A DNA stretch of 64,000 nt from Patescibacteria group bacterium (GTDB taxonomy: Bacteria > Patescibacteriota > Minisyncoccia > Phycocordibacterales > JBBTRF01), in the NCBI GenBank assembly GCA_038065315.1, contig JBBTRF010000001.1, positions 161,642 through 225,641 of the forward strand, in the 5' to 3' direction. The notes below the pieces were generated by a model, which was not told where the DNA came from, made no database searches, and saw only the letters and a list, made by a program, of their open reading frames with translations. The position numbers and the translations under genes were made by a program. Of the stretch, positions 668-55,555 are shown piece after piece; the first letter of the stretch is position 1; each line of letters starts with the position of its first letter.

Positions 668-735
668 TTGTCGGTCGTTTGCTGTATCTGTTGATATGCA
701 ACAGCGACTAAAAGGTTTTTAAACGTCAAAAAACA

Positions 736-3553: not shown

Positions 3554-3597
3554 AATACGCGCCCAAACTACTAGGGCGCGTATGGTTGGACGATAGA

Positions 3598-4671
3598 TTA
3601 AAATCGATTCGCTAATGAGGAAGCGAGTTGGGAAACAGTCAACGCCCTACCCTCTCTTAAGATGCGATGAGAGATTTGCTGTATGATGTTTTTCTGACGG
3701 TAGAGCATTGGCATCTCGGGGCCGAGTATTTCAATGTTTGCTCTCGGTGGCCCCGACAGTAGATGCTCAAGCTCGATGAGTCCTAGAGCCACCGAAGTTT
3801 TTTGAAGCTCTACTGATCTTAAACCCACTATTTGCGAATACTGATCAGCAAATGCGACAAGACCCTCTGTCAGCTTTTGTAGCCCGTTCCGATTAGCTGA
3901 CAGGAGTAGCCTCAACATGAACTTACCTAAGTCTACATGTGGAATACCTACGCACAGCTTCGGATCAAGAAGACAAACCGACTGGCCGTCGCGGATAATG
4001 TTACCGTCCTTACAGTCACCGTGCAGGAGATTCCTCATAGTCAAATGTGCTGAGACAAGCTCGACTATATTCGAATGAAGCCCTCTCGCAATCATTGGTT
4101 GCTGGAAATTCAAGTCCTCAATAATGAGTGAGTCTGAGGTCGCGCTTATCTGTCTAGGCTTGAGATTGTCCGGTGCCTCAGTTTGATGGAGGCGAGCAAT
4201 ACATTTTGCCAATCCTTCAGCGAACGACTTGTCAAAAGCACCTGGATCAATGCACTTCCCCGGGATTTTTTCGAGTATGACAACATTTGGTCCAACAAAC
4301 TCTAGAATTCTTGGGACCCGAAACGCTCTATCCCAAAGAAATCTGAGCGACCGAACCTCTATGACGATGTCGTTGCTGCATGGCATGTTGCCACCGTCAA
4401 GTGTCTTAGAAAAAACGCTCGGTCCAGCTGCTAAAAACTTTTCGTAGGCGAATAGCATGCTTCTTCCAAAAAGCCCTGCCTTCAAAATTGCCTCTCTGCC
4501 ATTAAAAGAGCATGTGAAGACGTAATTTACGTGACTAGAATCCACCATTCGCAGGTTGCGGACAAAAACCCCGTTCCTTTTGAGCAAGCCGACGAAGTAT
4601 TTGCTCACAATTGAGACAAACTGTCGTTGTGTTTTATTCACGGTTAGTCCTTTCGTAGGTTGTATTTTCAA
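3598..4671 (-). CDS. Phosphotransferase (APH/choline-kinase-like kinase fold) family protein
   Basis: LLHGDCKDGNIIRDGQSVCLLDPK fits the Brenner HGDxxxxN catalytic motif plus a downstream Asp; the size (357 aa) fits the family. Convergent with the 736..3553 operon. Confidence 0.5.
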   Translation of the reverse strand: MKIQPTKGLTVNKTQRQFVSIVSKYFVGLLKRNGVFVRNLRMVDSSHVNYVFTCSFNGREAILKAGLFGRSMLFAYEKFLAAGPSVFSKTLDGGNMPCSNDIVIEVRSLRFLWDRAFRVPRILEFVGPNVVILEKIPGKCIDPGAFDKSFAEGLAKCIARLHQTEAPDNLKPRQISATSDSLIIEDLNFQQPMIARGLHSNIVELVSAHLTMRNLLHGDCKDGNIIRDGQSVCLLDPKLCVGIPHVDLGKFMLRLLLSANRNGLQKLTEGLVAFADQYSQIVGLRSVELQKTSVALGLIELEHLLSGPPRANIEILGPEMPMLYRQKNIIQQISHRILREGRALTVSQLASSLANRF

Positions 4672-4800
4672 AACTGAGAAAATAATACATACCTATAATA
4701 AAAATGTCAAGGGCCCATGATGGTTGAATAGCTTGTATCTACTCAAGGGTATTGACCAGATTGTGCAGCTCGGTCTTGTCGGCCTAGGTAATAGTGCAAA

Positions 4801-5544
4801 TTACAGCATCTCCCCCACCCTCCCCATCACCTTGTTCGCTCCTGCGTGGAAGTCGTCGACAGTGGGACCAACGGAGCCTTTGCCGAGCTGTGGTGCCTGA
4901 GTCGGGCTGACGGGGCTTACGACTTCCTTTGGGAGCATTGGCGTGCCGTAGCGGATCACGACAGTGCGACGACGTAGAAAAAAGTCAGCGGCAGTGAGAT
5001 TGACCAAGCCTTTCATCGCCACTGGTACGACTGGCGCTTGAGCGGCGTGGGACAAGAAGGCGACGCCACCGCGTGCTGGGCCAATCTTGCCATTGGCAGT
5101 GCGGATGCCCTCAGGGAAAATACAGACGCAACGGCCACGCTGGGCCAGTGCGATGAAGTTTTGTAGCGAATACGCGTAATCGTGATGACCTGAATACACT
5201 GGATACGCTCCTGCAAGGTTGAACAAAATGCCGCCGTACAAATACCGCCGCCAGCCGGAGGCATCATAGAAATCCTTCTTTTGTGACACGTAGTACATCG
5301 GTGAGAACCGCCAAAAGAATGGCAGACCGACGCGTACCAGGGGCCCATCCCACTCGCTAGAATGGTTGGGTGCGAAGATCAATGCGACCGTCTTGCCTGC
5401 CGCCTTTTGGGCCTTCTGGAAGGCCAGGAGCTGCTCGACGCCTTCGTATCGAATGCGGCAAAACAACTTGAATACGACAAGGGCGAATACGTAGATGATG
5501 GCCTGCAAAAGGACAGGGATGACGGAAAAGAAGCGTTTTCTCAT
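4801..5544 (-). CDS. PlsC-family lysophospholipid acyltransferase (second paralog)
   Basis: N-terminal TM segment, NHSSEWD (HX4D motif) and FPEGIRT (block III motif). Confidence 0.65.
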   Translation of the reverse strand: MRKRFFSVIPVLLQAIIYVFALVVFKLFCRIRYEGVEQLLAFQKAQKAAGKTVALIFAPNHSSEWDGPLVRVGLPFFWRFSPMYYVSQKKDFYDASGWRRYLYGGILFNLAGAYPVYSGHHDYAYSLQNFIALAQRGRCVCIFPEGIRTANGKIGPARGGVAFLSHAAQAPVVPVAMKGLVNLTAADFFLRRRTVVIRYGTPMLPKEVVSPVSPTQAPQLGKGSVGPTVDDFHAGANKVMGRVGEML

Positions 5545-5603
5545 ACAGCACTGAATATTATATCATGTCTCAATCGAGCGCCGGCACTCGAGTAATAGCT
5601 TTT

Positions 5604-8600
5604 CTAGAACTCGTTGAGGTCCGGATTGGTACGAACGGTCACGGTGATTTCAGATACCGATTTTGGAGAACCTGTGAGTACGTTGACTCCCTTGGTGAAG
5701 ATCTTGAGGGTGTACTTGTAGACGCCCTCGGTGTTGAGCGGACCGCGGATCAAAATAGTCGGTGGAACAATAGAGCTGTAGGTCTGCTGTGAGAGTGCGT
5801 TTCCGGAAACACCAGAGCCTGCTGGACCGCTCTGAGTGATGAAGTAGACATCGTCTGTGTTGCCACCGGAGATACCGTAACGCATCGCCACCGCTCGGCC
5901 TTTCTGTGTTGTGACGGAAGATTTATAGGCACTCGCATCCGAAGGCGCGGCCGAATTATTTGTCGCGATTGGTGCCGCGCCGAAATTCACATTTGAATCG
6001 GTGTTTTCCTGAGGCACGGCTGGACAGCTGATGAGTTGCGAGCTGTTCACTGCCAACGAAGCATCGGAAACTGAGACAGTGACGAACTGGCCAGGCTGTG
6101 CTGCTTGTGTCGGAGGGGTACCTGTCCAGGTATATGAATTGGTCGTCTGGGAGATAGGAGAATGGAGCTCGGAGTCGGTACCTGTAGATCGAATCCAATT
6201 AAACTTGTATGGTTGGTTGCCCTTAAACGTACCATCCAGAGTCGCTGTCCATGTCCAGTCGCTACCGGCACGTGTCGGTGCCGCGCAAGTCAGACCAAGA
6301 ATACTCGAGGTTTCGCAGACGCCAATACACGAGGCGCCACCGCCGATGACTATATTATTGGCACCACCGCTGCCGCCGATTGGCAAAATCGTGACCGTAG
6401 CACTTGCCGATGCGGTGCGCGATCCCGAAGTGACGGTGAGTGTGCCGGTCTTTGTTCCTGCCGTAGGATAACTAGTGCTGGTGTTGGTATCGGAGCCCGA
6501 GATACTGCCATCACCAGACCACGCATAGGTACATGGGGTGTATCTCGCATCGCTACAACCATCCACGACAGATGCCCATGAGATTGCTTCGTTAACATAT
6601 GCAGTTGCCGGGCTAGCTGTGACTGCAACAGCTAGGTCAGGTGGCAGTGGATCAGGTTCTGGAGCAACACTGATCTCTGGACAGATAACAACAAGTGTTC
6701 GGCCGCCGGAAGAAACCGACACGTCTCCGTATTTAATACCGGGAGTCGTATACTTGTTCGATGCTGTGGAAGCATTCCCCTTCGGACCTTCAACATCAGA
6801 ACCAGACCATGTGTAGGTATATGCTCCGTTACCTCCGGCGACATTGGTTGTACGCCAAGTAGCGATTGCGCCAACCATCGGCGAGGTCGGCGCGACGCAG
6901 GTCGCTACGATATTTGGCTGCGGTGTCGGATCTGAAGGAACGAGAATACCGAAGTGGATCCAGCCGAGTACTGTGGAACCCCAAGCGTAGCCAGTATAAT
7001 GACGACTACCGTCGAGCTCTGTAATGATCTGCGCTCCATATGGACCAGCCGCCGTAATGCCGCCCAGACTGATCCAGCCGCTAAAACCACCCTTTGGATC
7101 CGGGTTCGATGCAGTATAGGTCGCTCCGCCGGTGTCGGAGCAGGTACTTGGATTCTGTGCGCCAGAACAGACACGCGCCCAACCGGTCATGCGGCCACTG
7201 AGAGGGTCCACTTTCGCATTGGTCTGTGTGGTACCTGGCGCGACAGTCGAATTCGGCATTGACGCTGTGTTCAGCCCACCAAATTTGATCCAACCAACAT
7301 TCGATGCCCAGACATAGCCGGTGAGGTTCCCATAAATGTCGCGATTCACTCCGTAATCACCACTTGGTGCGGCTTCATTAGTGCTACTGAAGCTCAACCA
7401 GCCGATCGTCGAAGACCACGCCCAGCCAGAGAGTGAAGTCGGGTTAGCGAAGGTCGGAGTATTGGCATCAACGTTCGGATTTGGTGGTGTATTTGGGTTT
7501 GGGGTAGGATTTGGCGGCGGAATAACTGGGGCTGGCGGATTGACCGTGAGCAACACCTGGATCGCACCAAGTGCTCTGCCGTTGTCATACAGAGCAAAGG
7601 CGAGCGGTGTTCCAACACCGGTCACGGTCGGTGCTGAGGGTGTAGCGGTAATGACAAGAGAAACATTGCAGGTCGGATTCGGAGTACAGGATGTTGGAGA
7701 GAATGAGTAACTAATGCCAACCGGTAGCTGCATCCCGGGCGCAGCGGTGAAGGTCACCGGCACGCTCGGCGCACCCGAGTTGTTGGTGATAAAGATCTGA
7801 GTATTGACACTCTCCCCCTTCACCACGGAGACATTATAGGAGTCGGTTTTGGAGACATTGAATGTCGACGGCATCGAAACGGTAAACGTAACCGTTAGAT
7901 CGGAGAGATTGACGTTTCCGTTCGTGTCGCGACAGCGAATTGAGTACGAACGACTCGTGCCATCGACAAGGCCCGTGATGGTAGCAGAATGGGTCATTCC
8001 TGTGTCCCACGCTGTGAAGTTATTGTTCATCGCCGAATAAGTAGTGTCGACTCCTGCGGCATATCTACAAGTCGCCACATCATTGGTTGTAATGGAAAGA
8101 TTCGCATTGATGGTACCCGCAGGGAGCAATACAGGGGTCACGTTCGGAGTGACTAGGGTGCGAATTGGGGCACCGGAACATTTGTTTTGATGAGTAGTGG
8201 TTGCTGATAAAAATACATCCGCTGTATTCAAAAGGCAATCTACACTTTTCCCCAAAGTATCCATGTTTCCAGTGACAGATACCCCGGAATTTTTATATTC
8301 AGCACCAGAAGTCAAAATCACCTTTCGCATAGAAAAATAACGATAACTTTCTTGTAGTAGATTTGTTGATTGATTGAAACGACTATCAAAAATATTGTCA
8401 GAAATTTCTAGCCCCTCAACCTCTGTAATCAATAGTGCAGAATTTTGAAATTCCCCTATCGGACTTGAGATAAACCTAATATCATTATTGGCGACACGAA
8501 AATTCTTCAATTCTCGTGCATACGTACTTGGCGGGTAATACAAAGAATCGCTCGGATTAAACAGGTTACGGATAATTCGAATACCTGCTCGTGCACCTTC

Positions 8601-9923
8601 ATTCACAGGAACGAGAGTTATCTCATTATTGTGAATGTTATAGCCAATCTTTTTGAAATTTGGCAATCGATCTACAAAAATATCTATACCACGAGACACA
8701 CCTAAAAAGTGATTATTGTATATTTCGAGATTATAATCCTGCCACCAGTCAGAGTAATATCCCGCAGCAATATTTTCGCCAATATTATTAAACACTTTTC
8801 CACCATATGTGTGGTGTACCGAATATCCTTGGAAAGCGCTATCTTCGCCATTTACGCCAGTAAAGCGAATAGTGTTGTTCGCAATAACCGAGCGATTCAT
8901 AAAGACGTCCTTGCGCGACGTGTGCGCAGGATCATCGTTCGTACCATTAGAATTCCAAGAGCCGGTAATGTTAAAAACAGTTGACAGACCTTGCCTATTC
9001 CTCAATGAGGAATGTAGGTTGCTCTCCTCATAAACAGAGTTGACAATTCGAGAACAGTGAACGTCGGTCGTATCTCCAGTACAGGAGGCATTGTATCTCA
9101 CATTTGGATCAGCGACGCCATGTTCAGAAAGGAGCAGCAAGATTCCAAAAGATTCTGTCCCGCCGGTTCCATAATAATTGCCAATATTTTTTAATCTAAT
9201 ACCATCTGCAAAATTTCCTTCTCCGAACAACTGAACACCGTGTATCCTCGTCCTGTTTTCAGGCACAGCTTTATTGAACGGAGCCGAGTTAAACTTCTCA
9301 ACCAGAGTCGAGTAATTGGCATCGATGGTCAGATTCTTGATACCCTCCGCACTTGGAACCGCCCTCACGCCACCAACCCATTTGTATCCATCACCCACAA
9401 TCACCGAAATATCTGCCAATCTCATTTTGCTGCTTGCAGTAAATCTCGCGTCATCGAGCTTGATAATCGTCCCGTCCCGAGATTCTCCCACGATAGATGC
9501 GTTGCTTGGCAAAGTCCACTGAGGGAGGCAGCCGTTCGAAGTGCCACAGGTGTTGTTGGTAGAAAAACCAGCCGTAAGGTACGTGCCATTTTTCAAATGT
9601 ATTACCAATTTTGTATCTGACGGCTTGTCCTTAAGGGCATAATTTGCACTATTCACGCCCAATATGTTGGACATGACATAATCAATGCTTCCCATCGGCG
9701 CGCCGTATGGATTACCAACACTACCATCTCCACCAAAGACGGAAGGATCGGTAAAGGCGGCGCCCGCTACTTTTACATACACATCAACAAGAGTAGTGTT
9801 TGCAGGCGTTGGACTTTGCGCAAATAGAGACGACCCGAAAAAAATTACGCCAATAAAAAGAAAAATCCCACCAACGCCACAGAGTTTCCATAGTCGCATA
9901 CAGTGAATTATACAGCACAGCAA
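5604..9923 (-). CDS. Giant secreted/cell-surface protein (1439 aa): signal/TM anchor, right-handed parallel beta-helix region, Pro-rich linker, GW-type tandem repeats, Ig/PKD-like Ser/Thr-rich C-terminal region
   Basis: N-terminal hydrophobic segment LFIGVIFFGSSLFAQSP; many N-x-[ST]/NN..I repeats typical of pectate-lyase-like beta-helices (NNTIRF, NNDIRF, SDNIFD); PPAPVIPPPNPTPNPNTPPNPN linker encoded near 7470-7545; four GWI/LxF repeats; long T/S/G-rich C-terminus. Confidence 0.7.
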   Translation of the reverse strand: MLCCIIHCMRLWKLCGVGGIFLFIGVIFFGSSLFAQSPTPANTTLVDVYVKVAGAAFTDPSVFGGDGSVGNPYGAPMGSIDYVMSNILGVNSANYALKDKPSDTKLVIHLKNGTYLTAGFSTNNTCGTSNGCLPQWTLPSNASIVGESRDGTIIKLDDARFTASSKMRLADISVIVGDGYKWVGGVRAVPSAEGIKNLTIDANYSTLVEKFNSAPFNKAVPENRTRIHGVQLFGEGNFADGIRLKNIGNYYGTGGTESFGILLLLSEHGVADPNVRYNASCTGDTTDVHCSRIVNSVYEESNLHSSLRNRQGLSTVFNITGSWNSNGTNDDPAHTSRKDVFMNRSVIANNTIRFTGVNGEDSAFQGYSVHHTYGGKVFNNIGENIAAGYYSDWWQDYNLEIYNNHFLGVSRGIDIFVDRLPNFKKIGYNIHNNEITLVPVNEGARAGIRIIRNLFNPSDSLYYPPSTYARELKNFRVANNDIRFISSPIGEFQNSALLITEVEGLEISDNIFDSRFNQSTNLLQESYRYFSMRKVILTSGAEYKNSGVSVTGNMDTLGKSVDCLLNTADVFLSATTTHQNKCSGAPIRTLVTPNVTPVLLPAGTINANLSITTNDVATCRYAAGVDTTYSAMNNNFTAWDTGMTHSATITGLVDGTSRSYSIRCRDTNGNVNLSDLTVTFTVSMPSTFNVSKTDSYNVSVVKGESVNTQIFITNNSGAPSVPVTFTAAPGMQLPVGISYSFSPTSCTPNPTCNVSLVITATPSAPTVTGVGTPLAFALYDNGRALGAIQVLLTVNPPAPVIPPPNPTPNPNTPPNPNVDANTPTFANPTSLSGWAWSSTIGWLSFSSTNEAAPSGDYGVNRDIYGNLTGYVWASNVGWIKFGGLNTASMPNSTVAPGTTQTNAKVDPLSGRMTGWARVCSGAQNPSTCSDTGGATYTASNPDPKGGFSGWISLGGITAAGPYGAQIITELDGSRHYTGYAWGSTVLGWIHFGILVPSDPTPQPNIVATCVAPTSPMVGAIATWRTTNVAGGNGAYTYTWSGSDVEGPKGNASTASNKYTTPGIKYGDVSVSSGGRTLVVICPEISVAPEPDPLPPDLAVAVTASPATAYVNEAISWASVVDGCSDARYTPCTYAWSGDGSISGSDTNTSTSYPTAGTKTGTLTVTSGSRTASASATVTILPIGGSGGANNIVIGGGASCIGVCETSSILGLTCAAPTRAGSDWTWTATLDGTFKGNQPYKFNWIRSTGTDSELHSPISQTTNSYTWTGTPPTQAAQPGQFVTVSVSDASLAVNSSQLISCPAVPQENTDSNVNFGAAPIATNNSAAPSDASAYKSSVTTQKGRAVAMRYGISGGNTDDVYFITQSGPAGSGVSGNALSQQTYSSIVPPTILIRGPLNTEGVYKYTLKIFTKGVNVLTGSPKSVSEITVTVRTNPDLNEF

Positions 9924-9948
9924 CGGCCGAGACTGTGGATAGTGTGCT

Positions 9949-11106
9949 CTACATCCCCTCTTTTTTCAATTCTTCGATCGCTTTCTTGGCCGCCTTCGAG
10001 AGGTGTTTCGGCATTTCGATGGAGATCTTCACAAAAAGATCACCGCGGCGGTTTTTGCTCCCGCCGATCGGCACGCCGCGCCCCTTTACACGAAGTTGTT
10101 CGCTGTGAGTGATACCGGCCGGGATGCTGAGTTGGATATCGCCATCGAGCGTGGTAAATGTTTTCACTGCACCGAGAAGTGCTTCGGAAAGCTTAATACC
10201 GAGCGAGGCATGTAAGTCGGCGCCATCGCGCTCAAAAAGCGGGTGCGGCACGACGTGGATCTTCACGTAGAGATCGCCAGAAGAGCCGGTGCCGCCGCCA
10301 GCCAGTGTTTCGCCCTTGCCGGCCATGCGGAGCATCTCGCCGTCGTTGATGCCAGCCGGAATGACTACCTCGAGATTCTCCTGCCTGTCGTACACGCCTG
10401 CACCGCGGCAGATCTTGCATTTTTCCTTTGGTATCGTACCTTTCCCAGCACAGGTTGGGCAAGTGGCTGTGGTACTCACATTGCCGAGGAAGGTGCGGCG
10501 CACCTCTTGTACCTTGCCGCGTCCTTTGCAGGTGTCACAGGTCTCGATTTTTGTTCCCGGCTCGCCCCCTGTGCCATTGCAATGGTCGCATGCCGCAGTG
10601 CGACTAAAACGTAGCTCACGAATAGAGCCGAAGACAGCATCCTTGAACGGAATTTCGATATCGATCGACATATCGCGGCCCTTCTGACTGCGACCGCGGC
10701 CACCTCGTGCGCCTCCTGCCCCGCGCCCGCTTGAACCGCCAGTGCCGAAAATATCGCCAAAGATATCGCCAATGTCGAATTCGATGTTCTGCGAGCCACC
10801 GAAGCCTTGGGTGAATTGCGAAAAATCAAAGCCATCGAAACCACCGGCTTGGCCACTGAAGGGATTACCTCCTCCGCCGGAGCCTCCACCAAAACCTGGG
10901 CCCGACGAACCAAATCGGTCGTATTGTGCACGCTTCGCATCGTCCGACAAGGTCGAATACGCCTCATTTGCTTCTTTGAAGCGCGCCTCGTTGCCACCCT
11001 TCTTGTCTGGGTGATGTTCATGCGCGAGCTTACGGAACGCCTGCTTGATCTCGTCTTTCGAGGCACTCTTTTCGACTCCGAGTGTTTTGTAATAGTCTTT
11101 TGACAT
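9949..11106 (-). CDS. dnaJ: Chaperone DnaJ (J domain, G/F-rich region, 4x CxxCxGxG zinc finger, C-terminal domains)
   Basis: MSKDYYKTLGV...HHPDK J-domain; Gly/Phe-rich segment; CDHCNGTG, CDTCKGRG, CPTCAGKG, CKICRGAG repeats. Start chosen at the internal Met with a DnaJ-typical N-terminus (ATG at 11106); the ORF track starts 8 codons earlier. Confidence 0.9.
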   Translation of the reverse strand: MSKDYYKTLGVEKSASKDEIKQAFRKLAHEHHPDKKGGNEARFKEANEAYSTLSDDAKRAQYDRFGSSGPGFGGGSGGGGNPFSGQAGGFDGFDFSQFTQGFGGSQNIEFDIGDIFGDIFGTGGSSGRGAGGARGGRGRSQKGRDMSIDIEIPFKDAVFGSIRELRFSRTAACDHCNGTGGEPGTKIETCDTCKGRGKVQEVRRTFLGNVSTTATCPTCAGKGTIPKEKCKICRGAGVYDRQENLEVVIPAGINDGEMLRMAGKGETLAGGGTGSSGDLYVKIHVVPHPLFERDGADLHASLGIKLSEALLGAVKTFTTLDGDIQLSIPAGITHSEQLRVKGRGVPIGGSKNRRGDLFVKISIEMPKHLSKAAKKAIEELKKEGM

Positions 11107-11199
11107 TTTAGATTTTTTGAACCTTGACACTATACCATACGGTGTGTAACTATTCTATTCAGTCAGTTGTTTTAGAGGGTTGGCTTCAGAAAGGAAGCC

Positions 11200-11529
11200 G
11201 TGGTGTCCCGAACAATACACCTAGCATCGTTAATCATGATCGTCATCTTGAAAGACCGGAGACTTTTCGCCATCCAGTGCCTCGTCTCAATTGCAATCAT
11301 GCTGAGCGCATATCTCGAGCCGAGGTATTTTGCGATAACCTTTGGCGCTTGGTTCCTGTTCTGCCTGCTGATTCTGCTCGTTTACACAATCAGCACGCCT
11401 GCCGAAGACCTGTTGGGGCTCAAGCATGAGATGCAATTCATCGTGCTGTTTGGCACCCCGATAATCATCCTCGGAATCACGAAGGCTCTTTTTACCATAA
11501 GGCGAACGGACGCCGCACCTAAGACCTGA
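11200..11529 (+). CDS. Small multi-pass membrane protein, hypothetical
   Basis: 109-aa ORF with three hydrophobic helices, in the divergent gap between dnaJ and dnaK, followed by a hairpin plus T-run. Confidence 0.35.
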   Translation: MVSRTIHLASLIMIVILKDRRLFAIQCLVSIAIMLSAYLEPRYFAITFGAWFLFCLLILLVYTISTPAEDLLGLKHEMQFIVLFGTPIIILGITKALFTIRRTDAAPKT

Positions 11530-11544
11530 TCGCGTTATCTACCT

Positions 11545-11625
11545 CACTCCCCTCCTCCATTATCTCCACGACTCAGTCTTTGTACTAGGTCATGGAGAGT
11601 AGGAAGAGGGGGGTTTTTTTATTTT
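11545..11625 (+). terminator. Putative rho-independent terminator (G/C-rich imperfect hairpin followed by GGGGGGTTTTTTTATTTT)
   Basis: CTCCCCTCCTCC...GGAGAGTAGGAAGAGGGGGG followed by a T7 run, immediately downstream of the 11200..11529 ORF. Confidence 0.35.
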
Positions 11626-11669
11626 CTGATTTTCAGGAGCCTAGTGGAGAGGTGTCTGCGGCCATTTTT

Positions 11670-11730
11670 GAGTAGGTGCGGATTTATCATACTTTTCTCA
11701 TACTTTCGTATGAAAAATCCGATACTACTC
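11670..11730. repeat. Palindromic intergenic element, copy 1 (GAGTAGGTGCGGATTTATCATAC...GTATGAAAAATCCG...TACTC), just downstream of dnaK
   Basis: Shares inverted arms CGGATTT(T/A)TCATAC / GTATGAAAAATCCG and internal TTTTCTCATAC units with the copies at 14191-14249 and 62817-62887. Confidence 0.6.
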
Positions 11731-11760
11731 TTTTTCGCTGCGCCACCCCGGCTGCTTCAG

Positions 11761-13698
11761 CTATTTCTTCTCCCCATCTTTACCGCCTTCCTTGAACTCC
11801 GCATCGCGGACTGGGCCGTCAGCATCTTTCTTGTCGCCCTGCGCAGTGTCGGCCCTTGAGGCCTCGCCGTTTGCTCCGGCGCCTGCCGCGCCCGCACCAG
11901 CCTTGCTCATCGCCTCGCCAACTTTGGAGAGCTCGGTCGAGAGAGCTTCGGTTGCGCTCCTGATCTTCGCAAGATCAGCACCATCTTTCACCTGCTTGAG
12001 GTCAGCGGTCTTGTCCTCGACACCCTTGCGGACATCAGCAGGCACTTTATCGCCCGCATCCTTGAGCGCCTTCTCGCTGGTGTAGATCATCTGCTCGGCG
12101 ACATTTTTTGCCTCGACTGCCTCACGCTTCTTCTGGTCGTCAGCACTGTGCATTTCCGCATCCTTCTGCATCTTCGCGACCTCTTCCTTGCTCAGGCCGG
12201 AGCTTGCGGTAATCTTGATCGAGTTCGACTTGCCGGTGGTCTTGTCCTTGGCAGTCACATTCAAGATACCATTGGCATCGATGTCAAAAGACACCTCCAC
12301 CTGCGGCATACCGCGAGGAGCCGGTGGAATACCGTCGAGAGTGAACTTGCCGAGCGACTTGTTGTCCGCCGCCATAGCACGCTCGCCCTGAGTGATGTGG
12401 ATTTCCACAGAGGTTTGATTGTCCGCCGCGGTCGAGAACACCTGAGACTTCTGTGTCGGGATAGTAGTGTTCTTCTCGATGAGCTTCGTCGCGACGCCAC
12501 CCATAGTTTCAATGCCGAATGAAAGTGGGATCACGTCGAGCAAGAGCACGTCCTTCACGTCGCCGGCGAGAATACCGCCCTGAATAGCGGCACCGATCGC
12601 CACGACTTCGTCTGGGTTCACTCCCATGTGGAGCTCCTTTCCGAAGAAGGCCTTCACCGCTGCGAGCATGGCTGGCATACGAGTCTGCCCACCCACCATC
12701 ACCACTTCGTTGATATCGGCCACCTTGAACGGCGATGCTTCCATCGCACGCTTGGTGATCATCATTGCTCGATCGATGAATTCTCGAGTGAGAACCTCGA
12801 GCGTTGATCGGGTCATAGTCTTCACGAGGTGCTTCGGGCCGTCACTGCCAGATGAGATGAACGGAATGTTGATCTCGGTCTGCACCGCGGTGGAGAGCTC
12901 GATCTTGGCCTTTTCTGCGGCCTCGTCGAGTCGCTGCACTGCCAAGGGATCCCTCATGAGGTCGATACCGTTTTCCTTCTTGAAATCATCCGCGAGCCAT
13001 TTGATGATCTTCTGGTCGATGTCTTTTCCGCCCAAGTGCGCGTCACCGTCGGTGGACTTCACCTCCACGAGGTCGGCGCCCACTTCGAGCACGGAGATGT
13101 CGAAGGTACCGCCTCCGAAGTCGAAGACGACGATCTTTTCATCCTTCTTTTTGTTGAAGCCGTATGCGAGGGCGGCTGCGGTCGGCTCGTTGATGATACG
13201 CATCACTTCGAGGCCGGCGATCTTGCCTGCGTCCTTGGTGGCCTGTCGCTGTGCGTCGTTGAAGTATGCCGGGACGGTGATGACGGCCTGAGTCACCTTC
13301 TCGCCGAGTCGCGCTTCCGCGTCGGTCTTGAGTTTGGTGAGGATCATGGCCGAGATCTCCTCCGGTCGGAGCCATTTGTCGGCCATTTTCACTTCCACAC
13401 CACCGTTCGCAGACTTCTGCACTTCAAAAGGCACCGATGCCTTGTCTTTTTGCACCGCGTCTTCGTCAAATGTGTGTCCGATGAAGCGCTTGATCTGGAA
13501 GACGGTGTTCTTTGGGTTGGTGACAGCTTGTCGCCGCGCAAGGAGGCCGACGAGTCGGTCGCCGGTCTTTGATTGAGCGACAATAGATGGAGTGGTGCGC
13601 GCACCCTCGGCATTTTCGAGGATCTTCGGGCTGCCCGCTTCCATCACCGCGACTGCTGAGTTGGTGGTACCGAGGTCGATACCGATGATTTTTGACAT
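11761..13698 (-). CDS. dnaK: Chaperone DnaK (Hsp70)
   Basis: [30 protein letters not shown] and the EEVD-less C-terminus; 645 aa, full-length Hsp70. Confidence 0.95.
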
Positions 13699-48949: not shown

Positions 48950-49606
48950 TTATTTCCCAGGAAACAGCCCGCAAACACTGCGCACAACCACCACCAACAC
49001 CGCCCCAGATACATCCATCAGCATATCTTTCTGCGCATCCCAAATATCTCCCTGCGAGCCGAGAAAGGCGGCACCGGCCTCACCACCATAAATCGCCGCA
49101 TAGCCCCACTCGATCCATTCATAGAAGACGGCGACAAAAGCGATGGCGAATACGGCGTAGGTGTTGGCGAGCCACTGTTTTGCCACCAAGCCACGCATCA
49201 CGAGATATTCAATGATCGGTAGCGCGTAGAAGCCCACAACAAAGTGGCCGATCCGATCGAACATATTGCGCTCGTAGCCAAAAAAATCGTTGAACCAGTC
49301 GAACGGCACGAGTTCAAAGGTGTAGTGCCCACCGATCGTGTGCCAGAACGGCAGGATGAACATCAGGACGTAGGCGGTGCTGGAGAAGCGGATGTTTCTG
49401 ATATAGAGAACCGTGATGAAGATGACGAGTGCGAGGATCGGCCCGTTTTCAACATACCAGACGGCACGGGAGTATGGGTGGATACCAGCGACGATGAATT
49501 CGATGGTGTAGGCGGCGAGGAGAGTATGTGGGAGGTATTTTTTGAGCATAGATACATTATACAACAAAAAAAATCTGCTTTCGCGGATTTCTTTTTTGGA
49601 CATCAC
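48950..49606 (-). CDS. Multi-pass membrane protein, hypothetical (YjdF/DUF2238-like composition)
   Basis: About six TM helices rich in Trp/Tyr/Phe; no catalytic motif. Confidence 0.5.
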   Translation of the reverse strand: MMSKKEIRESRFFLLYNVSMLKKYLPHTLLAAYTIEFIVAGIHPYSRAVWYVENGPILALVIFITVLYIRNIRFSSTAYVLMFILPFWHTIGGHYTFELVPFDWFNDFFGYERNMFDRIGHFVVGFYALPIIEYLVMRGLVAKQWLANTYAVFAIAFVAVFYEWIEWGYAAIYGGEAGAAFLGSQGDIWDAQKDMLMDVSGAVLVVVVRSVCGLFPGK

Positions 49607-49622
49607 GATATTTGATTTTATA

Positions 49623-49865
49623 CTAGTTTATATAACCCGCGTCTTTCATTTTGCCAAAAAATGTAAGTAGGAAGAAAATCAGAAATATGACTAGAGCAGC
49701 AAATTCTGGACTATGATCCAACCGAAATCCCAACCATATTAATACCCAACCCAACAGATAGGTCAATATTGGCGAAATAACTGTAAGAGAATACATCACC
49801 GCATAATTACAGCACGGGGTCTTTGAGTTTTTCATTTTATTATTTCTAATTTTCTTTCTACACAA
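49623..49865 (-). CDS. Small two-TM membrane protein, hypothetical (island)
   Basis: 80-aa ORF; hydrophobic helices VISPILTYLLGWVLIWLGF and AALVIFLIFFLLTFF; followed on the minus strand by a hairpin plus T-run (49568-49600). Confidence 0.4.
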   Translation of the reverse strand: MCRKKIRNNKMKNSKTPCCNYAVMYSLTVISPILTYLLGWVLIWLGFRLDHSPEFAALVIFLIFFLLTFFGKMKDAGYIN

Positions 49866-50167
49866 TCCCTAATCCATATATCATCATTAATGAAATTACC
49901 ACTATCATCCACATAGCCTTTATTCTTAAGACCGATCATAATTAATTCTGGTGATAAAGTAGACTTATCGAAAAATTTGATATCCTCCTCCTTTTCCTCT
50001 CTGCATTCTTTCTGAAGAGTAAGTTTTAAATTCACTAGATTTTCACCATCTTGCTTTTCAATCATATATTTTTGTTTACTAACTTCTGTAGAATAATAGA
50101 AACCACCCAATATACATGCTGCAATTATAATTCTCCAAGATACTGGTAGTTTATTTAATTTATTCAT
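49832..50167 (-). CDS. Small secreted/lipoprotein-like hypothetical (island)
   Basis: Signal segment with a lipobox-like IAAC; Glu/Lys-rich mature region. Confidence 0.4.
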   Translation of the reverse strand: MNKLNKLPVSWRIIIAACILGGFYYSTEVSKQKYMIEKQDGENLVNLKLTLQKECREEKEEDIKFFDKSTLSPELIMIGLKNKGYVDDSGNFINDDIWIRDCVERKLEIIK

Positions 50168-50295
50168 AGGAATTTTAGTTATTTAATACATGCCCTCTTA
50201 AACATTTTTCATAACTAGACTTATCTAACGTTGTTAGCCTATCAGTATCAGATCCTCTGAGAGTATTCGGGGGTAATTTTATACATTTAGTTTAA

Positions 50296-50796
50296 TTATA
50301 CGGCAGTTTGTTGTTTATGGTCCTGTTCTTCTTCATCTTTATTAACAAAATACTGTCCAAGTATTCTACTTCCGTACGTTGTTATCATTCCTACACATAA
50401 CCAGAAGAGGACGGTCCAAGATCCGTCAAATGCTGTGGCCAGTAATGACAAAGGTAGTATTCCTATTCCTGCAAACAATAAACCTACTACAACCCAAAAA
50501 CCTCCCCAAATGATGTATGTAAACAACAGTGCCCTTAACCAGAGTTCCAAACCAAAAATATAAGAAGATATATACATTCCTAGTCCTGAATATCCACGAG
50601 TTTTTCTAACAAAACAAAGGGGCAGAAGAACGAGTAAGTTTACGAAGAAAAGAAAGCCAGAGATTATTTGTACTATGGGTAAGACTGTTGCGGTAAACCA
50701 AATTGCCCCCTTGAAAACTAGACCGATAATGAGACCGAATGCAACAATTATAACTACTCCCAACAAACCCGAAGACCATTCTTTTATTTTACTCAT
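50296..50796 (-). CDS. Multi-pass membrane protein, hypothetical (island)
   Basis: Five hydrophobic helices; start taken at MSKIKEWSSG. Confidence 0.45.
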   Translation of the reverse strand: MSKIKEWSSGLLGVVIIVAFGLIIGLVFKGAIWFTATVLPIVQIISGFLFFVNLLVLLPLCFVRKTRGYSGLGMYISSYIFGLELWLRALLFTYIIWGGFWVVVGLLFAGIGILPLSLLATAFDGSWTVLFWLCVGMITTYGSRILGQYFVNKDEEEQDHKQQTAV

Positions 50797-50797
50797 A

Positions 50798-51106
50798 TTA
50801 TTTTTTATTAGTTTTAATAAATAAGGACACAAAGAACAAAACCGCCCCGGTTACATCGAAAATCTGCCACATATCTTTTGAGAAATAAAATGGGAATATG
50901 GGGTTAAATAGTATCGCTAGAGCAATAAACAGCCACATAAAAACGGTCTTATGATTTTCAAAGTAACTAAAAGCAAGATAGGCACTGCAGATTGTTGTTA
51001 ACCAACGAGTTAGCTGATAGTAGGAGTATGGGTGGTCTCCTAATGCCCCAAGCAATGTCCCAAATGCGATTATCTTAAACCAATTTCCTTTGAGAGAGTT
51101 CTTCAT
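50798..51106 (-). CDS. Small three-TM membrane protein, hypothetical (island)
   Basis: 102 aa; tightly abuts the downstream membrane gene (stop/start 50796/50798). Confidence 0.45.
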   Translation of the reverse strand: MKNSLKGNWFKIIAFGTLLGALGDHPYSYYQLTRWLTTICSAYLAFSYFENHKTVFMWLFIALAILFNPIFPFYFSKDMWQIFDVTGAVLFFVSLFIKTNKK

Positions 51107-51288
51107 ATAAAAGTTATATTTATGCTAATTTTACTCCACAAACCATAACCATACAATCAAGATTAAATTATGCAACAAAAAATCTGCTTACGAAGCTACG
51201 TTCTGCAATAAATCCCGCAACTTTTGAAAGTTTGAATCGCTCAAATCCTTCCTTAATTTTTTCTTTTGTCCATACATCATTCATATAT

Positions 51289-51807
51289 TTAAAAATTGCC
51301 TTCCATTATCTTTATTATTCTTTTTAGTATTGGCATGTTTGGAATGACAGCATCAAGAACACTCCTTGAAAAAAGTCTCTTACAGTCCCCATCAGTTAGA
51401 CTCCTTCTTCCGTTCAGGTGGTTACTCTGAAAGGACCGTTTACAGTCTGATGAAGATCGGTTTGCGTGATTTGTGGCTGGTTCGAGAACGGTCAAAAGCA
51501 GTCCTTCAATACAAGGACTGCTTCCAACCAATTCAAAACCCTTAACTTTTGCTTTATTTTTTACAGGACTTGTCCATTCACGATCTGTATCTAGCAATAT
51601 GAAAGAGTGGTTATATTTCAGATTACCTTTTACACGTAGCGCTTTTTCCAGAATGTATGACACATCTTTTCCTCCAGCATAATCTACTCTTACGCTGGTT
51701 TTGTTTACCGCATACAGCGATCGAATGTGCTTTAGGAAGATTCTTTCAGCTTCTCCCTCTCCAAAAGCAAACACTGTGGTTTTCTGTGCCCTAAGAGTTC
51801 TTGCCAT
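51289..51807 (-). CDS. DUF4276/RloB-like (TOPRIM-like) small protein; putative nuclease partner of the upstream ATPase
   Basis: TVFAFGEGEAERIFLKHIRSLY matches the family's h-h-h-EG-x-x-E-x-x-F N-terminal motif; ILLDTD matches the TOPRIM DxD. Start set at MARTLRAQK (51807), 4 nt after the ATPase stop; the ORF track's longer start would overlap by 70 nt. Confidence 0.5.
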   Translation of the reverse strand: MARTLRAQKTTVFAFGEGEAERIFLKHIRSLYAVNKTSVRVDYAGGKDVSYILEKALRVKGNLKYNHSFILLDTDREWTSPVKNKAKVKGFELVGSSPCIEGLLLTVLEPATNHANRSSSDCKRSFQSNHLNGRRSLTDGDCKRLFSRSVLDAVIPNMPILKRIIKIMEGNF

Positions 51808-51811
51808 AATT

Positions 51812-53002
51812 TTAAACCTTAGGAATAGCCCCGTAAGCCCCAGCCATATACTTAGCGTAGAAGTTGTCGTCTGCTCTGACACCTTTTACATCAGCCAAGT
51901 TCCAAGCCTCACTGATACCCTTATCATTCTTTTCGACCAAAATGATCTGCTGTTTATCTAATTTGTTTAGTATCTGCACACTGTGAGTGCTGAACAAAAG
52001 CTGTGCTTTATTTGGATTGTAGGTCTCTGAAGAGAACAAATTGATGATTTCTGGAATCATTAGTGGGTGAAGATCATTATCCATTTCATCTAGGACGGCA
52101 ACTCCACCACTTTGCAATACAACCAAGATGGTTCTAAGCAAGAAGAGAAGGTTCTGAGTTCCCCTAGATTCATACTGGAAAGAGAGAGAGTACTCCTTAC
52201 TTCCATCGATGTACTTGTGAGATCCTGTTGGAACATAGATAACCCTTTTGTCTGATGTCTCGACCTTCTGAATATTTATTTTTGCTAAACCTAGATCAAA
52301 CTTGCTTAGTATTTCTTCTGCTTTTGCTTTAATTTCGGGATTTTCCTGATAGTATTTTATTGCATCGGCGAGGCGTTCCATTGGGACTTTACCGCCCTCA
52401 AAAATGTTTGTCTGTATAGCACTGAGGTAGTTGGTAATTTCAATACTGTGCTTATGATTTATCTGGCGTGCTGTAGAAATAATTGAAGCGTTACTACGAG
52501 TAATTTGGGCAAAGTTTGCTGGAACATCAAACCTTTTAAAGTTGAAGTCGTATTCATTCTTTTCCTTATTCCATGACCTATCGAAGAGAATCTTGAACCT
52601 CTTTTCCTCTTTGATACTTAACTTCTCATTGATAATTTTCTTGGTGTTTAATTCAAGTTCGTATTTATATATCTTTTTGTTTGTTTCAAACTCAATATCA
52701 AAGAAGCTTGATCTTTTATCTGAGTCAGCACAGAACAAGAAGGGTTTGAATGCGATGTCTTTATCGGGGGTAAGAGCAGAGAATGAATCTACCACAAACC
52801 ACTTCATAAAAGCCAAACTTTTTAGAAGATTAGTTTTACCCGAAGCATTTGGTCCAACAAATGCCATAAATTTAGTGAGCTTATTCCCAAACTCATCAGT
52901 AAAATATGCATCCGTGTCAGGTGCATTTTTGTTGACCACCAGATCAATCTCGGCACCCTCCATAAAGGAGTAGAAGTTTTTGAATGATAGTTTGTGGATC
53001 AT
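51812..53002 (-). CDS. AAA/ABC-type ATPase of the AAA_15/AAA_21 (OLD/AbiLi/AriA-like) family
   Basis: Walker A GPNASGKTN near the N-terminus; split Walker B VAVLDEMD plus downstream LFSTHS (D-loop/H-loop) near the C-terminus; ABC-signature-like ESRGTQNLL; about 250-aa insertion between the Walker motifs. Confidence 0.65.
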   Translation of the reverse strand: MIHKLSFKNFYSFMEGAEIDLVVNKNAPDTDAYFTDEFGNKLTKFMAFVGPNASGKTNLLKSLAFMKWFVVDSFSALTPDKDIAFKPFLFCADSDKRSSFFDIEFETNKKIYKYELELNTKKIINEKLSIKEEKRFKILFDRSWNKEKNEYDFNFKRFDVPANFAQITRSNASIISTARQINHKHSIEITNYLSAIQTNIFEGGKVPMERLADAIKYYQENPEIKAKAEEILSKFDLGLAKINIQKVETSDKRVIYVPTGSHKYIDGSKEYSLSFQYESRGTQNLLFLLRTILVVLQSGGVAVLDEMDNDLHPLMIPEIINLFSSETYNPNKAQLLFSTHSVQILNKLDKQQIILVEKNDKGISEAWNLADVKGVRADDNFYAKYMAGAYGAIPKV

Positions 53003-53175
53003 GTGTTTGTTAGTACATTAATTACATTGTTATCCTAGCAGATTTAAGCACACTTTGCAAGCTTTTATACAAAATATTGTTTAAAATAGTTTAAAACATC
53101 CTATTTTAAGGCATTTTTGGCTAGATAAGATCTTTGTTCGGGAGCGATAAGGTGGATGTGCTGAGGCACATCCAC

Positions 53176-53532
53176 CTAGTTTCTGATTCGAGCATCAACA
53201 GTCTCGTAGATCTGCATATTACGTTTGCAGTTTTCGTCAAAATTACGCTGAATTTCTGCTGGTCCGATTTCTTCTCTCAGTGCCTCAAATTGCATGTACG
53301 CACTTAAGGTATAGATAGCAAGTTGCCAATCAATACCATTTGTCTGCGGACATTGATTGGCATATAATCCGTTTTTATCTTCGTACGCTGAGGAGTAAAA
53401 ATATAGAGGATTAATCTTGTCGGAAGACACTGATTTTTCTGCCGGTTTGAGTTTTAAAAAAAATACTGCTCCAAGGCAGACTAGTAAGACTATCGCTAAC
53501 ATTATATATTTGTATTGCTTAGTATTTTTCAC
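53176..53532 (-). CDS. Signal-anchored secreted hypothetical (island)
   Basis: IMLAIVLLVCLGAVFFL TM; Cys pair in the mature region; a 10-bp perfect hairpin GGTGGATGTGctgaggCACATCCACC overlaps its stop. Confidence 0.4.
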   Translation of the reverse strand: MKNTKQYKYIMLAIVLLVCLGAVFFLKLKPAEKSVSSDKINPLYFYSSAYEDKNGLYANQCPQTNGIDWQLAIYTLSAYMQFEALREEIGPAEIQRNFDENCKRNMQIYETVDARIRN

Positions 53533-53579
53533 AAATTGTGATTATTTAATATCATCTAAAAAATCTTTGATTTTATCAT

Positions 53580-54173
53580 TTACCTAATTTCAAAAGAATC
53601 AACGAATTTATCATAATTTGCTGGAGTAGCATTTTCACTTTCAACACTTAGCAAATATATCGTTTGGCCATTTAAAATTATTTTTCCTTTTATAAATGTT
53701 CCGAAGCTTTTTGTCTCCATTGAAAAATCAAGGGAATGATTACCTTTGAAATTTCCAGAGTCAGAAGAAATCAGACTATTTCCGCTATCCGTCTTCAGCA
53801 TATTACTTAGTGATCCTTTTAGAAGATTATCCGGGTTAGATACATCAATGGGAGAGGAATAAATAATTTTAGAAATCAGGAAAGCATACCCCGAAATTTT
53901 GGAGGTGTACATATCTTGGGTGTAACTCATGTTACTATCAGGAACTGGAAAATTGTAATTCTTGTGTTCAGGCTCGGAAGGAAGCGACACGTTAAAATCT
54001 GCACTCGGTGAACTATATGCAATCCAATAGTTATTTATATTTTGTTGAGTACTAGTACTATTTAAATGTCCAAATACAAAATATAGTAAGCCGACAACTA
54101 GAATTGCCCCGAAAATGGGAGAAAGATTAAAATCTTCTTTTTTCTCAATATTATTAATGTTTTCTTTTTCCAT
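53580..54173 (-). CDS. Signal-anchored secreted hypothetical (island)
   Basis: SPIFGAILVVGLLYFVFG TM; Ser/Asn-rich ectodomain. Confidence 0.4.
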   Translation of the reverse strand: MEKENINNIEKKEDFNLSPIFGAILVVGLLYFVFGHLNSTSTQQNINNYWIAYSSPSADFNVSLPSEPEHKNYNFPVPDSNMSYTQDMYTSKISGYAFLISKIIYSSPIDVSNPDNLLKGSLSNMLKTDSGNSLISSDSGNFKGNHSLDFSMETKSFGTFIKGKIILNGQTIYLLSVESENATPANYDKFVDSFEIR

Positions 54174-54174
54174 A

Positions 54175-54387
54175 TTATTTCTTCCTAAAATACTTTATTA
54201 AATCTGCAGTTCCCGTAATTAGGCCAATAATAATCAAGAGATTAAATATACCGACAGCGGCGCCTATCGTAGTTGAAGCCCCTCCCAGTAGGTTAGATAT
54301 GACATAGGCTACAATTCCTAGAGGAATTGCGTAATTCCACTTCCATATTTTTTTATCAAGGTCTTTTATGAATTTTTTATATTCCAT
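54175..54387 (-). CDS. Small two-TM membrane protein (island, adjacent to the tRNA 3' end)
   Basis: 70 aa; Gly-zipper-like GGASTTIGAAVG. Confidence 0.4.
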   Translation of the reverse strand: MEYKKFIKDLDKKIWKWNYAIPLGIVAYVISNLLGGASTTIGAAVGIFNLLIIIGLITGTADLIKYFRKK

Positions 54388-54400
54388 GCCGATGTTTCTT

Positions 54401-54476
54401 TGGTGGACCCTACAGGACTCGAACCTGCCACCCCCTCATTGCAAATGAGGTGCTCTACCAGATGAGCTAAGGGCCC
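54401..54476 (-). tRNA. tRNA-Ala (anticodon UGC), CCA encoded
   Basis: The minus-strand sequence GGGCCCTTAGCTCATCTGGTAGAGCACCTCATTTGCAATGAGGGGGTGGCAGGTTCGAGTCCTGTAGGGTCCACCA folds as a cloverleaf. It has a 7-bp acceptor stem with a G3:U70 alanine identity pair, D-loop AGCTCATCTGGTAGAGC, anticodon loop TTTGCAA and T-arm GGTTCGAGTCC. Confidence 0.9.
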
Positions 54477-54594
54477 GTCTTTCCAACCGTCGCATCATAC
54501 CAAAAAGAACCTAAAAAAACAACCAGTGGAATTAAAATATTTCCTAGGGGGACACTATACAAACATTTCAAAAAGTTGTATGGTTGATATATAA

Positions 54595-55554
54595 ATGAAA
54601 AAATTACTATTTGTATTCGTCGGTTTGTCAACTTTATTATTTTTATTTTCCGTAGTAAATCCTCTGTATGCCTATGTTTCTGTTAAAGGCTACTACAAAA
54701 GTAACGGCACTTATGTTGCACCCCACGTACGCAGTAGTCCAAATGGCTTGAAATCTGACAACTACAGTTATACTCCGAGCCAGGGTGCGTATAATAAAAC
54801 GTACGGCACGAGAGGTGCGGAATGGGACACCCCAACCTACATAACGGATCCTAGCTACTATCAAGGAAAGTCGTTGTATGAATCTGGGAATAATAATTAC
54901 GGAAGCTATTATCAATACCCGACCACACCCACCTGTCCGACGAATTCATATTACGACGGAGTATCTTCCTGTAAGTGCAATTATGGCTATATTGTGAACG
55001 GAGGAAGTTGTGTTAATGCTAATAATTATTGCTCAGGTCAGCTTGGGATAATGTCTCAGTATAATAGCTTGTTAAGTAGATGTGAGTGTATGAGCGGCTA
55101 TGAATACAATGGGTCGAGCTGTGCTTATAAAAGTACAAGCTATTCGAGTTCCTCTGGATATTCCGGAGCATCATCTTACGCTTGTCCAGCAAATTCACAC
55201 ACATCACTAACTGAACCGACAAAATGTGACTGTAATTCCGGATATCAAGTCAATTCAACAAGGACAGCCTGCGTTCTGCCAAATAATGCTTTGAATAACC
55301 AAACCTGTATAAATTCATACGGCGCATACAGTAATTGGGACGGTACAAAGACAGCCACAGGACTAATAAATTGCGCTTGTCAGGGTGGATATGATTGGAA
55401 TAATTCAAAGAGTACCTGCGTAGCAATCGTAGCCAAACCACAATATCAAAATGATGAGCTTATTGGAAAAAATTATTATTTAACCAATCGTACATGCGTC
55501 GGTCTTTCTGATAATCAATATTCCTATTGCATTGGCTACGCATACAACCACTAG
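54595..55554 (+). CDS. Secreted cysteine-rich repeat protein (C-x-C-x2-GY-x3-5-C modules, Tyr/Ser/Asn-rich)
   Basis: Signal peptide MKKLLFVFVGLSTLLFLFSVVNPLYA; at least four repeats (CKCNYGYIVNGGSC, CECMSGYEYNGSSC, CDCNSGYQVNSTRTAC, CACQGGYDWNNSKSTC); AT-rich codon usage like the island. Confidence 0.6.
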   Translation: MKKLLFVFVGLSTLLFLFSVVNPLYAYVSVKGYYKSNGTYVAPHVRSSPNGLKSDNYSYTPSQGAYNKTYGTRGAEWDTPTYITDPSYYQGKSLYESGNNNYGSYYQYPTTPTCPTNSYYDGVSSCKCNYGYIVNGGSCVNANNYCSGQLGIMSQYNSLLSRCECMSGYEYNGSSCAYKSTSYSSSSGYSGASSYACPANSHTSLTEPTKCDCNSGYQVNSTRTACVLPNNALNNQTCINSYGAYSNWDGTKTATGLINCACQGGYDWNNSKSTCVAIVAKPQYQNDELIGKNYYLTNRTCVGLSDNQYSYCIGYAYNH

Positions 55555-55555
55555 T

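Follow-up and report, generated by a model that had tools for sequence, protein, structure and literature searches.

A candidate AbiL/RloAB-type anti-phage module on a compact cassette in a Patescibacteria genome

AbiL of Lactococcus lactis was reportedly described by Deng et al. in 1999. The lactococcal system was found by its anti-phage phenotype, needs two genes, and is an abortive infection (Abi) system that acts after transcription (PMC13064643). It is grouped with PARIS, OLD, Gabija and MADS3-4 among systems that combine an ATP-binding cassette (ABC) ATPase with a TOPRIM protein (PMC13064643, PMC11464382), and has been placed with PARIS in one AAA15/21 + TOPRIM super-group (PMC11464382). 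Here we describe a gene pair of this composition in a stretch of 64,000 nt from contig JBBTRF010000001.1, part of a Patescibacteria metagenome-assembled genome (MAG). The whole stretch is called the window, and all coordinates are window positions. Patescibacteria genomes have yielded very few defence systems so far, according to one paper, which also counts only a single described phage for the group (PMC12366544).

Overall, our data support that the pair is an intact AbiL/RloAB-type anti-phage module, horizontally acquired as a self-contained cassette of 1.84 kb with its own promoter, a reading to which we assign a probability of roughly 0.8. That it is an AbiL-type module of some kind, whether for defence or toxin-antitoxin (TA)-like, is slightly surer again. 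It is a well-supported but ordinary member of the already known and widespread AbiL/RloAB family, not a new kind of system. The initial annotation, made from the sequence before any database search, had proposed a candidate anti-phage pair of an ATPase and a TOPRIM-like protein, and this is supported. It had left the choice between AbiL, PARIS and an uncharacterised relative open; the family is AbiL/RloB, and PARIS drops out for lack of a DUF4435 or AriB match.

Like lactococcal AbiL, the pair consists of two co-directional genes, in which that for the AAA_15/21 ABC ATPase precedes that for a small TOPRIM protein of RloB type. The features that define AbiL and can be tested here, namely an AbiLi ATPase, an AbiLii/RloB protein, and their arrangement as an adjacent co-directional unit, are all present. 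On the PADLOC AbiLi model the ATPase of the Lactococcus prophage proPhi7 (ORF55) scores 254 bits and that of the window 257. The window and lactococcal prophage ATPases share 25% identity, and the small proteins are related at profile level only: an hhalign comparison of the small-protein family profile with the lactococcal partner, ORF56, gave an E-value of 3.8e-4, with three acidic motifs collinear. The window protein fits the PADLOC model PDLC02338 slightly better, whereas the lactococcal protein matches PDLC02337. The host also differs, as the window pair belongs to a Patescibacteria MAG and is known here from its genes alone.

RloA/RloB (restriction-linked ORFs) belong to type I restriction-modification (R-M) loci of Campylobacter; the small protein of the window belongs to the RloB homology family, and in close relatives NCBI places a "RloB domain-containing protein" beside an "ATP-binding protein", but the window pair has no adjacent hsd or type I R-M genes. 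PARIS, a class 4 OLD-like system, resembles the pair in having a split ABC ATPase and a stand-alone TOPRIM effector. Its effector AriB, however, is a DUF4435 protein of about 35 kDa, whereas the window protein is RloB-type and 172 aa long. In OLD (P2 Old, TsOLD, BpOLD) and GajA the ATPase and TOPRIM parts are fused, and class 2 adds a UvrD-like helicase.

Family membership of the two proteins

Direct reading of the sequence confirmed the two open reading frames (ORFs) at the positions given in the initial annotation, with the same lengths (396 and 172 aa) and the same 4-nt gap; the strand, which had been left unstated, is minus (Table 1). The tight spacing suggests, from the sequence, that both genes are co-transcribed and their translation coupled, and relatives of the pair are spaced equally tightly. 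A mechanically compiled ORF list has the small gene begin further upstream, at GTG 51882 (197 aa). We place its start at ATG 51807 because M1 is nearly invariant in an alignment of 33 small-protein homologues and because gene calls in six independent assemblies use this 172-aa start. NCBI AAB391_01090 ("Patescibacteria group bacterium") matches the small protein at 100% identity. The locus was found again in several assemblies named Hain_H52 and Hain_H41, names that presumably point to Hainich groundwater samples.

The ATPase matches Pfam AAA_21 (E 2.5e-36, 126.7 bits) and AAA_15 (E 1.2e-15, 58.5 bits), both above the gathering scores, and the PADLOC AbiLi model PDLC02335 (E 5.3e-77, 257 bits), which bears out its earlier description as an OLD/AbiLi-type AAA_15/21 ATPase. 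Matches to AriA, PtuA, GajA, MAD3, and RecF are much weaker than that to AbiLi, or are generic. The fold is Rad50/SMC/PtuA/AriA-like. The protein carries a Walker A motif (GPNASGKTN, residues 50-58), an ABC signature (SRGTQ, 279-283), a Walker B motif (VAVLDEMD, 301-308) and an H-loop (LFSTHS, 336-341). Among 46 ATPase homologues the Walker A motif, S279-x-G281-T282, D305-E306 of Walker B, and H340 of the H-loop are invariant or nearly so. The insertion holds most of the variation, chiefly around residues 196-220 and 241-275, and is a candidate sensing surface. Few segments are conserved as well as the C-terminal tail (371-395), in which R376, N380, K384, Y385, G388, Y390, G391 and P394 are invariant; AlphaFold2 (AF2) models it with low confidence (predicted local distance difference test, pLDDT, 41-63). 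We consider the tail a candidate partner-docking or oligomerisation peptide.

For the small protein the evidence is strongest at the level of the family. The Pfam family RloB was matched by 29 of 33 relatives (best E 3.8e-12), the only other Pfam matches among them being one to DUF3226 and one to RhoGEF, and the window protein itself matches the PADLOC AbiLii models PDLC02338 (E 6.8e-7) and PDLC02337 (E 6.4e-6). The initial annotation had called it a DUF4276/RloB-like TOPRIM protein; the RloB/AbiLii part of this holds through the family-level matches. The DUF4276 part does not, and DUF4276 (PF14103) was rejected, as at E ≤ 1 RloB is the sole Pfam match of the protein, with none to DUF4276 or DUF4435. 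Taken together, the Pfam and PADLOC searches returned AAA_15, AAA_21, RloB, AbiLi and AbiLii, but neither DUF4276 nor DUF4435, which had also been expected.

The conserved residues of the small protein are those of an OLD-type TOPRIM domain. The hallmark of TOPRIM is a glutamate after beta1, a glycine after beta2 and a DxD motif, and the two-metal site of BpOLD is formed by E400, E404, D455xD457, T506xE508 and K562 (PMC6755086). The window protein contains the motifs FGEGEAERIF (15-24) and ILLDTD (70-75). Across the 33 homologues G16-E17, G46, D73-x-D75, P98, E101 and K123 are invariant and E21 and C99 nearly so. These invariants follow the order of BpOLD (E400, E404, Gly, D455xD457, T506xE508, K562), including the E-x3-E and [T/C]-x-E spacings, and the putative catalytic set is E17, E21, G46, D73, D75, C99, E101 and K123. 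In the AF2 model (pLDDT 92.3; predicted template modelling score, pTM, 0.88) E17 lies directly after beta1, G46 after beta2, the DxD motif at the end of beta3, and C99-x-E101 at the start of the helix after beta4. The predicted structure thus has the Glu/Gly/DxD core together with the OLD-specific second glutamate, [T/C]xE helix and lysine. The catalytic motifs are intact, and every motif quoted in the initial annotation is present in the two proteins. As these motifs are invariant or nearly so in the 46 ATPase and 33 small-protein homologues, they are not there by chance.

Two further named systems were considered for the pair and rejected. For Septu/retron PtuA-PtuB, the ATPase gave 28.4 bits with the NCBIfam PtuA model against a cutoff of 500, and its partner is a TOPRIM and not an HNH protein. 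For MADS (MAD3/MAD4), the NCBIfam MAD3 score was 39.9 bits against a cutoff of 420, and the window has no adjacent methyltransferase.

The cassette, its closest relative and the spread of the pair

The closest diverged relative, here called L069, is on ENA ERZ28573537 scaffold_4068 (1-12747), which has a GC content of 0.38. Aligned by blastn, the window and L069 are 87.2% identical across a shared stretch of exactly 1,842 nt without an indel, and the flanks are unrelated on both sides. The unit is mobile, and we refer to it as the cassette (Table 1). Its GC content is 0.38-0.40 as against ~0.52 for host core genes, and resembles that of AT-rich donors such as L069. The ratio of nonsynonymous to synonymous substitution rates (dN/dS) between the window and L069 is 0.019 for the ATPase gene (dS 1.0) and 0.10 for the small gene (dS 0.54), and both are therefore under strong purifying selection.

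The leader of the cassette is conserved better than synonymous sites in the same comparison. It contains a promoter-like pair of hexamers, TTGCAA and TAGGAT, both identical in the window and L069, with a spacer that varies. The hexamers agree with the consensus at 8 of 12 positions, which falls below the threshold of a generic promoter scan, so that promoter function is something we only infer; the conserved pair suggests that the cassette carries its own promoter. A strong 12-bp hairpin with seven G-C pairs lies 30 nt outside the upstream boundary of the cassette, at the 3' end of the preceding 118-aa gene, and may insulate the cassette from read-through transcription. A search for an intrinsic terminator after the small gene gave a fold no better than those of shuffled sequences (z = +1.3).

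In L069 the cassette has DpnI, NERD, AAA_14/DUF4143 ATPase and Fic genes as neighbours, a setting resembling a defence island. There, 5 nt past the RloB gene, begins a multi-pass membrane protein of 477 aa (DUF7695), which could be an accessory third component in that genome. In the window, a 38-aa ORF (MNDVWTKEKIKEGFERF...) begins at the same distance from the small-gene stop. It is gene-called in some assemblies, was found in same-species contigs only, and may be a gene fragment or spurious. A remnant of the DUF7695 gene was considered and rejected, since the ORF has no similarity to the 477-aa gene of L069 and DNA homology stops at 51279.

The pairing of the two genes is obligate. Of 57 loci in species-representative genomes, 56 have an ATPase homologue on the same strand immediately upstream; most of the loci are from Beta- or Gammaproteobacteria, at 26-37% small-protein identity. 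A plasmid, phages and IMG/VR contigs supplied 27 more loci, and 26 of them show the same ATPase-first order. The stand-alone RloB-like family of ~170 aa is large, with 1,642 clusters at 50% identity for E ≤ 1e-3 and 220 for E ≤ 1e-30. The close clade, delimited at ≥55% small-protein and ≥70% ATPase identity, is seen in metagenomes only: none of 185,579 species-representative genomes has a member.

Mobile elements and defence genes recur around these relatives. The gene pair stays together on 24 of 24 viral (IMG/VR) contigs, and homologous ATPases occur on 177 plasmid records and in eight phage records, including Stenotrophomonas phage BUCT708 and Lactococcus prophage proPhi7. The proPhi7 pair (ORF55/56; 410 + 192 aa) is placed after the lysin and annotated as "abortive phage resistance protein". 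A Photobacterium plasmid of 5.3 kb carries an "ATP-binding protein" with a "RloB domain-containing protein", a Vibrio vulnificus relative adjoins filamentous-phage genes, and a Patescibacteria relative (L007) is located between an integrase and DNA methyltransferases.

Table 1. Positions in the window of the gene pair, its cassette and other features mentioned in the text.
Feature	Position	Strand	Details
AbiLi-type ABC ATPase (AAA_15/AAA_21)	51812..53002	-	396 aa; ATG 53002, stop TAA 51814-51812
Intergenic spacer AATT	51808..51811	-	4 nt, ATPase stop to small-gene start; read directly from sequence
AbiLii/RloB-type stand-alone OLD-like TOPRIM protein	51289..51807	-	172 aa; ATG 51807, stop ends 51289
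Whole transferable cassette	51279..53120	-	1,842 nt: leader, both genes, 10 nt of 3' sequence
Cassette leader	53003..53120	-	118 nt; DNA homology with L069 begins exactly at 53120
Promoter-like hexamer TTGCAA	53060-53055		followed by 17-nt spacer
Promoter-like hexamer TAGGAT	53037-53032		29 nt before ATG
38-aa ORF	51168-51284	-	begins 5 nt after small-gene stop
Hairpin upstream of cassette	53150-53177		12 bp
AT-rich stretch	49620-55555		~6 kb, between DUF2238 and Ddl
Direct repeat, first copy	49553-49583		overlaps terminator-like hairpin
Direct repeat, second copy	51164-51192		without significant fold
tRNA-Ala(UGC)	54401-54476
Cys-rich secreted protein	54595-55554	+	319 aa
Low-GC patch	736-4671		GC 0.40-0.44
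Large ORF	5604-9923	-	1,439 aa; internal GC dip 0.41 at 8001-9000

Proposed mode of action and alternative readings

By analogy, PARIS is the best mechanistic template for the pair, as it has a sensor/antitoxin ATPase and a nuclease that is released. In PARIS an AriA hexamer sequesters AriB, phage Ocr triggers the release, and AriB cleaves tRNA-Lys (PMC13064643, PMC11464382); in E. coli, AAA + OLD_TOPRIM pairs act as antitoxin and toxin (PMC10440598). It is likely on these grounds that the pair acts in a PARIS-like way, the ATPase being both sensor and restrainer, and the TOPRIM nuclease the effector. The two genes would be co-transcribed, and the Rad50/SMC-like ABC ATPase AbiLi would oligomerise and keep the OLD-type TOPRIM nuclease AbiLii inactive. 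The variable insertion of the ATPase would sense a phage-derived cue, upon which ATP binding or hydrolysis would release or activate the nuclease. AbiLii would then cut by two-metal catalysis (metal A at E17/D73/D75, metal B at E21/C99/E101, with K123) either host tRNA, as in PARIS, or DNA, as in OLD and Gabija, and this would halt growth and abort the infection. Complex formation, trigger, substrate and abortive outcome are all proposed by analogy, and we regard the sequestration-and-release mode as an even bet.

Several points weigh against the reading of the pair as an intact, acquired anti-phage module, or against carrying the mechanism of PARIS over to it. By itself the small protein scores 28.7 bits (E 1.8e-6) on RloB (PF13707), over model positions 4-137 of 195 only, and this is below the gathering score of 31.5. 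Foldseek found no match to it in the PDB at E ≤ 1e-3, and its family profile gave spurious matches only (E > 0.2) among PDB sequences. Because the single score is below the gathering score and the structure search is empty, the TOPRIM call needs the family-level evidence; the AbiLii/RloB assignment holds for the family and is borderline for this sequence taken alone. Structurally, the nearer neighbours of the ATPase are Rad50, SMC and PtuA rather than AriA, and no sequence similarity between AbiLii and AriB could be detected. For these reasons the transfer of the PARIS mechanism is only an analogy. As the structural neighbours of the small protein are DNA nucleases, and given the missing similarity to AriB, we leave the substrate between tRNA and DNA. 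The mode of action of AbiL itself has not yet been worked out (PMC13064643). The surroundings in the window give no help either: none of the nine neighbours in the AT-rich stretch matched a PADLOC model, DUF6804 was their sole Pfam match, and they are not defence genes; the stretch contains no integrase and no att-type direct repeat of the tRNA-Ala 3' end.

The alternative that survives best leaves the family assignment unchanged and concerns the mechanism. As in OLD or Gabija, a stable ATPase-TOPRIM complex would nick or degrade phage or damaged DNA directly, with no free toxic effector, and the ATPase or nucleotide levels would gate its activity. We consider this possible but a good deal less probable than not, as the split into two genes with a small stand-alone nuclease is a PARIS-like architecture, the E. 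coli pairs mentioned above behave like toxins and antitoxins (PMC10440598), and there is no UvrD-like helicase partner near the pair. As a family assignment, OLD class 1/Gabija was rejected: the window has two separate ORFs, no helicase among the neighbours, and a weak PADLOC GajA match (37.5 bits).

The pair could also act chiefly as a selfish toxin-antitoxin (addiction) cassette, kept and spread because its loss kills the cell, and give this host little real protection from phages. Such a cassette would fit the movement of a minimal 1.84-kb unit between unrelated contexts, its frequency on small plasmids, and the classification of such pairs as type II TA-like by NetFlax (PMC10440598). Defence and TA behaviour are not mutually exclusive, however, relatives occupy prophage moron positions and lie in defence islands, and lactococcal AbiL was identified by an anti-phage phenotype (PMC13064643); we think addiction as its main role improbable.

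That the pair is a PARIS (AriA/AriB) system proper is very doubtful. The best AriA match of the ATPase (127 bits) is generic because it coincides with that to Pfam AAA_21 in length (304) and in the residues matched (45-346), and it compares with 257 bits for AbiLi. The small protein gave no DUF4435 (PF14491) or AriB match at E ≤ 1, and is 172 aa in length where AriB is about 35 kDa.

A housekeeping repair pair, in which a RecF/RecR-like or Rad50-like ATPase works with a TOPRIM partner, is most improbable, as recF (TIGR00611) is matched at 19.1 bits against a cutoff of 172 and in the Walker A region only, the ATPase has no coiled-coil insertion, the distribution is patchy and linked to mobile elements, the composition is foreign, and the cassette also occurs in the unrelated context of L069. 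The initial annotation had itself named a housekeeping assignment of the ATPase and the absence of a TOPRIM-like match of the small protein as outcomes that would tell against it; the small protein reaches RloB, and RecF remains at 19 bits against 172.

The AT-rich stretch and meaning for Patescibacteria

The pair lies in an AT-rich stretch, described as an island in the initial annotation, and the composition of the genes bears this out: those from 49623 to 55554 have a GC content of 0.28-0.40, compared with 0.51-0.55 for the flanking DUF2238, Ddl and UvrC genes. Besides the AbiL pair, the stretch holds orphan small membrane or secreted proteins, a tRNA-Ala(UGC) gene and, beside the latter, a Cys-rich secreted protein. 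This protein is also rich in Ser, Tyr and Asn and has weak, sub-threshold EGF-like matches (E about 2e-3). A direct repeat of ~30 nt, TA[C/A]ATTAT[A/G]CAACAAAAAATCTGCTT[T/A]CG, is present in two intergenic copies that are 86-94% identical.

Elsewhere in the window, the low-GC patch near its start encodes an aminotransferase, a HAD hydrolase, a TauD-like dioxygenase and an APH-family phosphotransferase, and may be a small acquired metabolic or modification cluster. The 1,439-aa ORF, whose one match is a weak hit to a PKD domain, probably encodes a large protein of the cell surface. Defence or mobility genes were looked for in the low-GC patches at 1-4.7 kb and 8-9 kb, but these hold metabolic genes and the large PKD-domain protein.

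The initial annotation held that such a pair would be notable in a small-genome lineage. It is less so than claimed, as several of the closest ATPase relatives have already been annotated from Patescibacteria, Parcubacteria and Gracilibacteria MAGs. Public pipelines already name close relatives "AAA family ATPase" and "RloB domain-containing protein", and NCBI also uses "abortive infection protein". A literature search for AbiL in Patescibacteria found no paper joining these subjects.

It is conceivable, as a long shot, that the Patescibacteria-centred clade (at least 55% identity in the small protein and 70% in the ATPase) is a distinct AbiL sub-type, spreading among ultra-small episymbiont genomes as a bare, promoter-bearing cassette of 1.84 kb without a recognisable mobility gene. 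If so, its trigger or substrate could differ from those of PARIS and OLD. The cutting of a single-copy tRNA, for example, would be an unusually efficient growth-arrest switch in a minimal-genome cell, and the conserved, unstructured C-terminal tail of the ATPase could be the latch.

As it stands, the locus is a clean example of an AbiL-type system, catalytically intact as judged from its motifs, in a Patescibacteria genome. Its boundaries are resolved to single bases, and it bears signs of recent horizontal transfer while being under strong purifying selection. It is mildly interesting for its host lineage, in which few defence systems have been described, for the metagenome-only close clade, and for the unusually clear cassette boundaries and transfer. 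Since the mechanism of AbiL is still to be resolved (PMC13064643), the compact version of 396 + 172 aa could be a convenient minimal biochemical model of the family.

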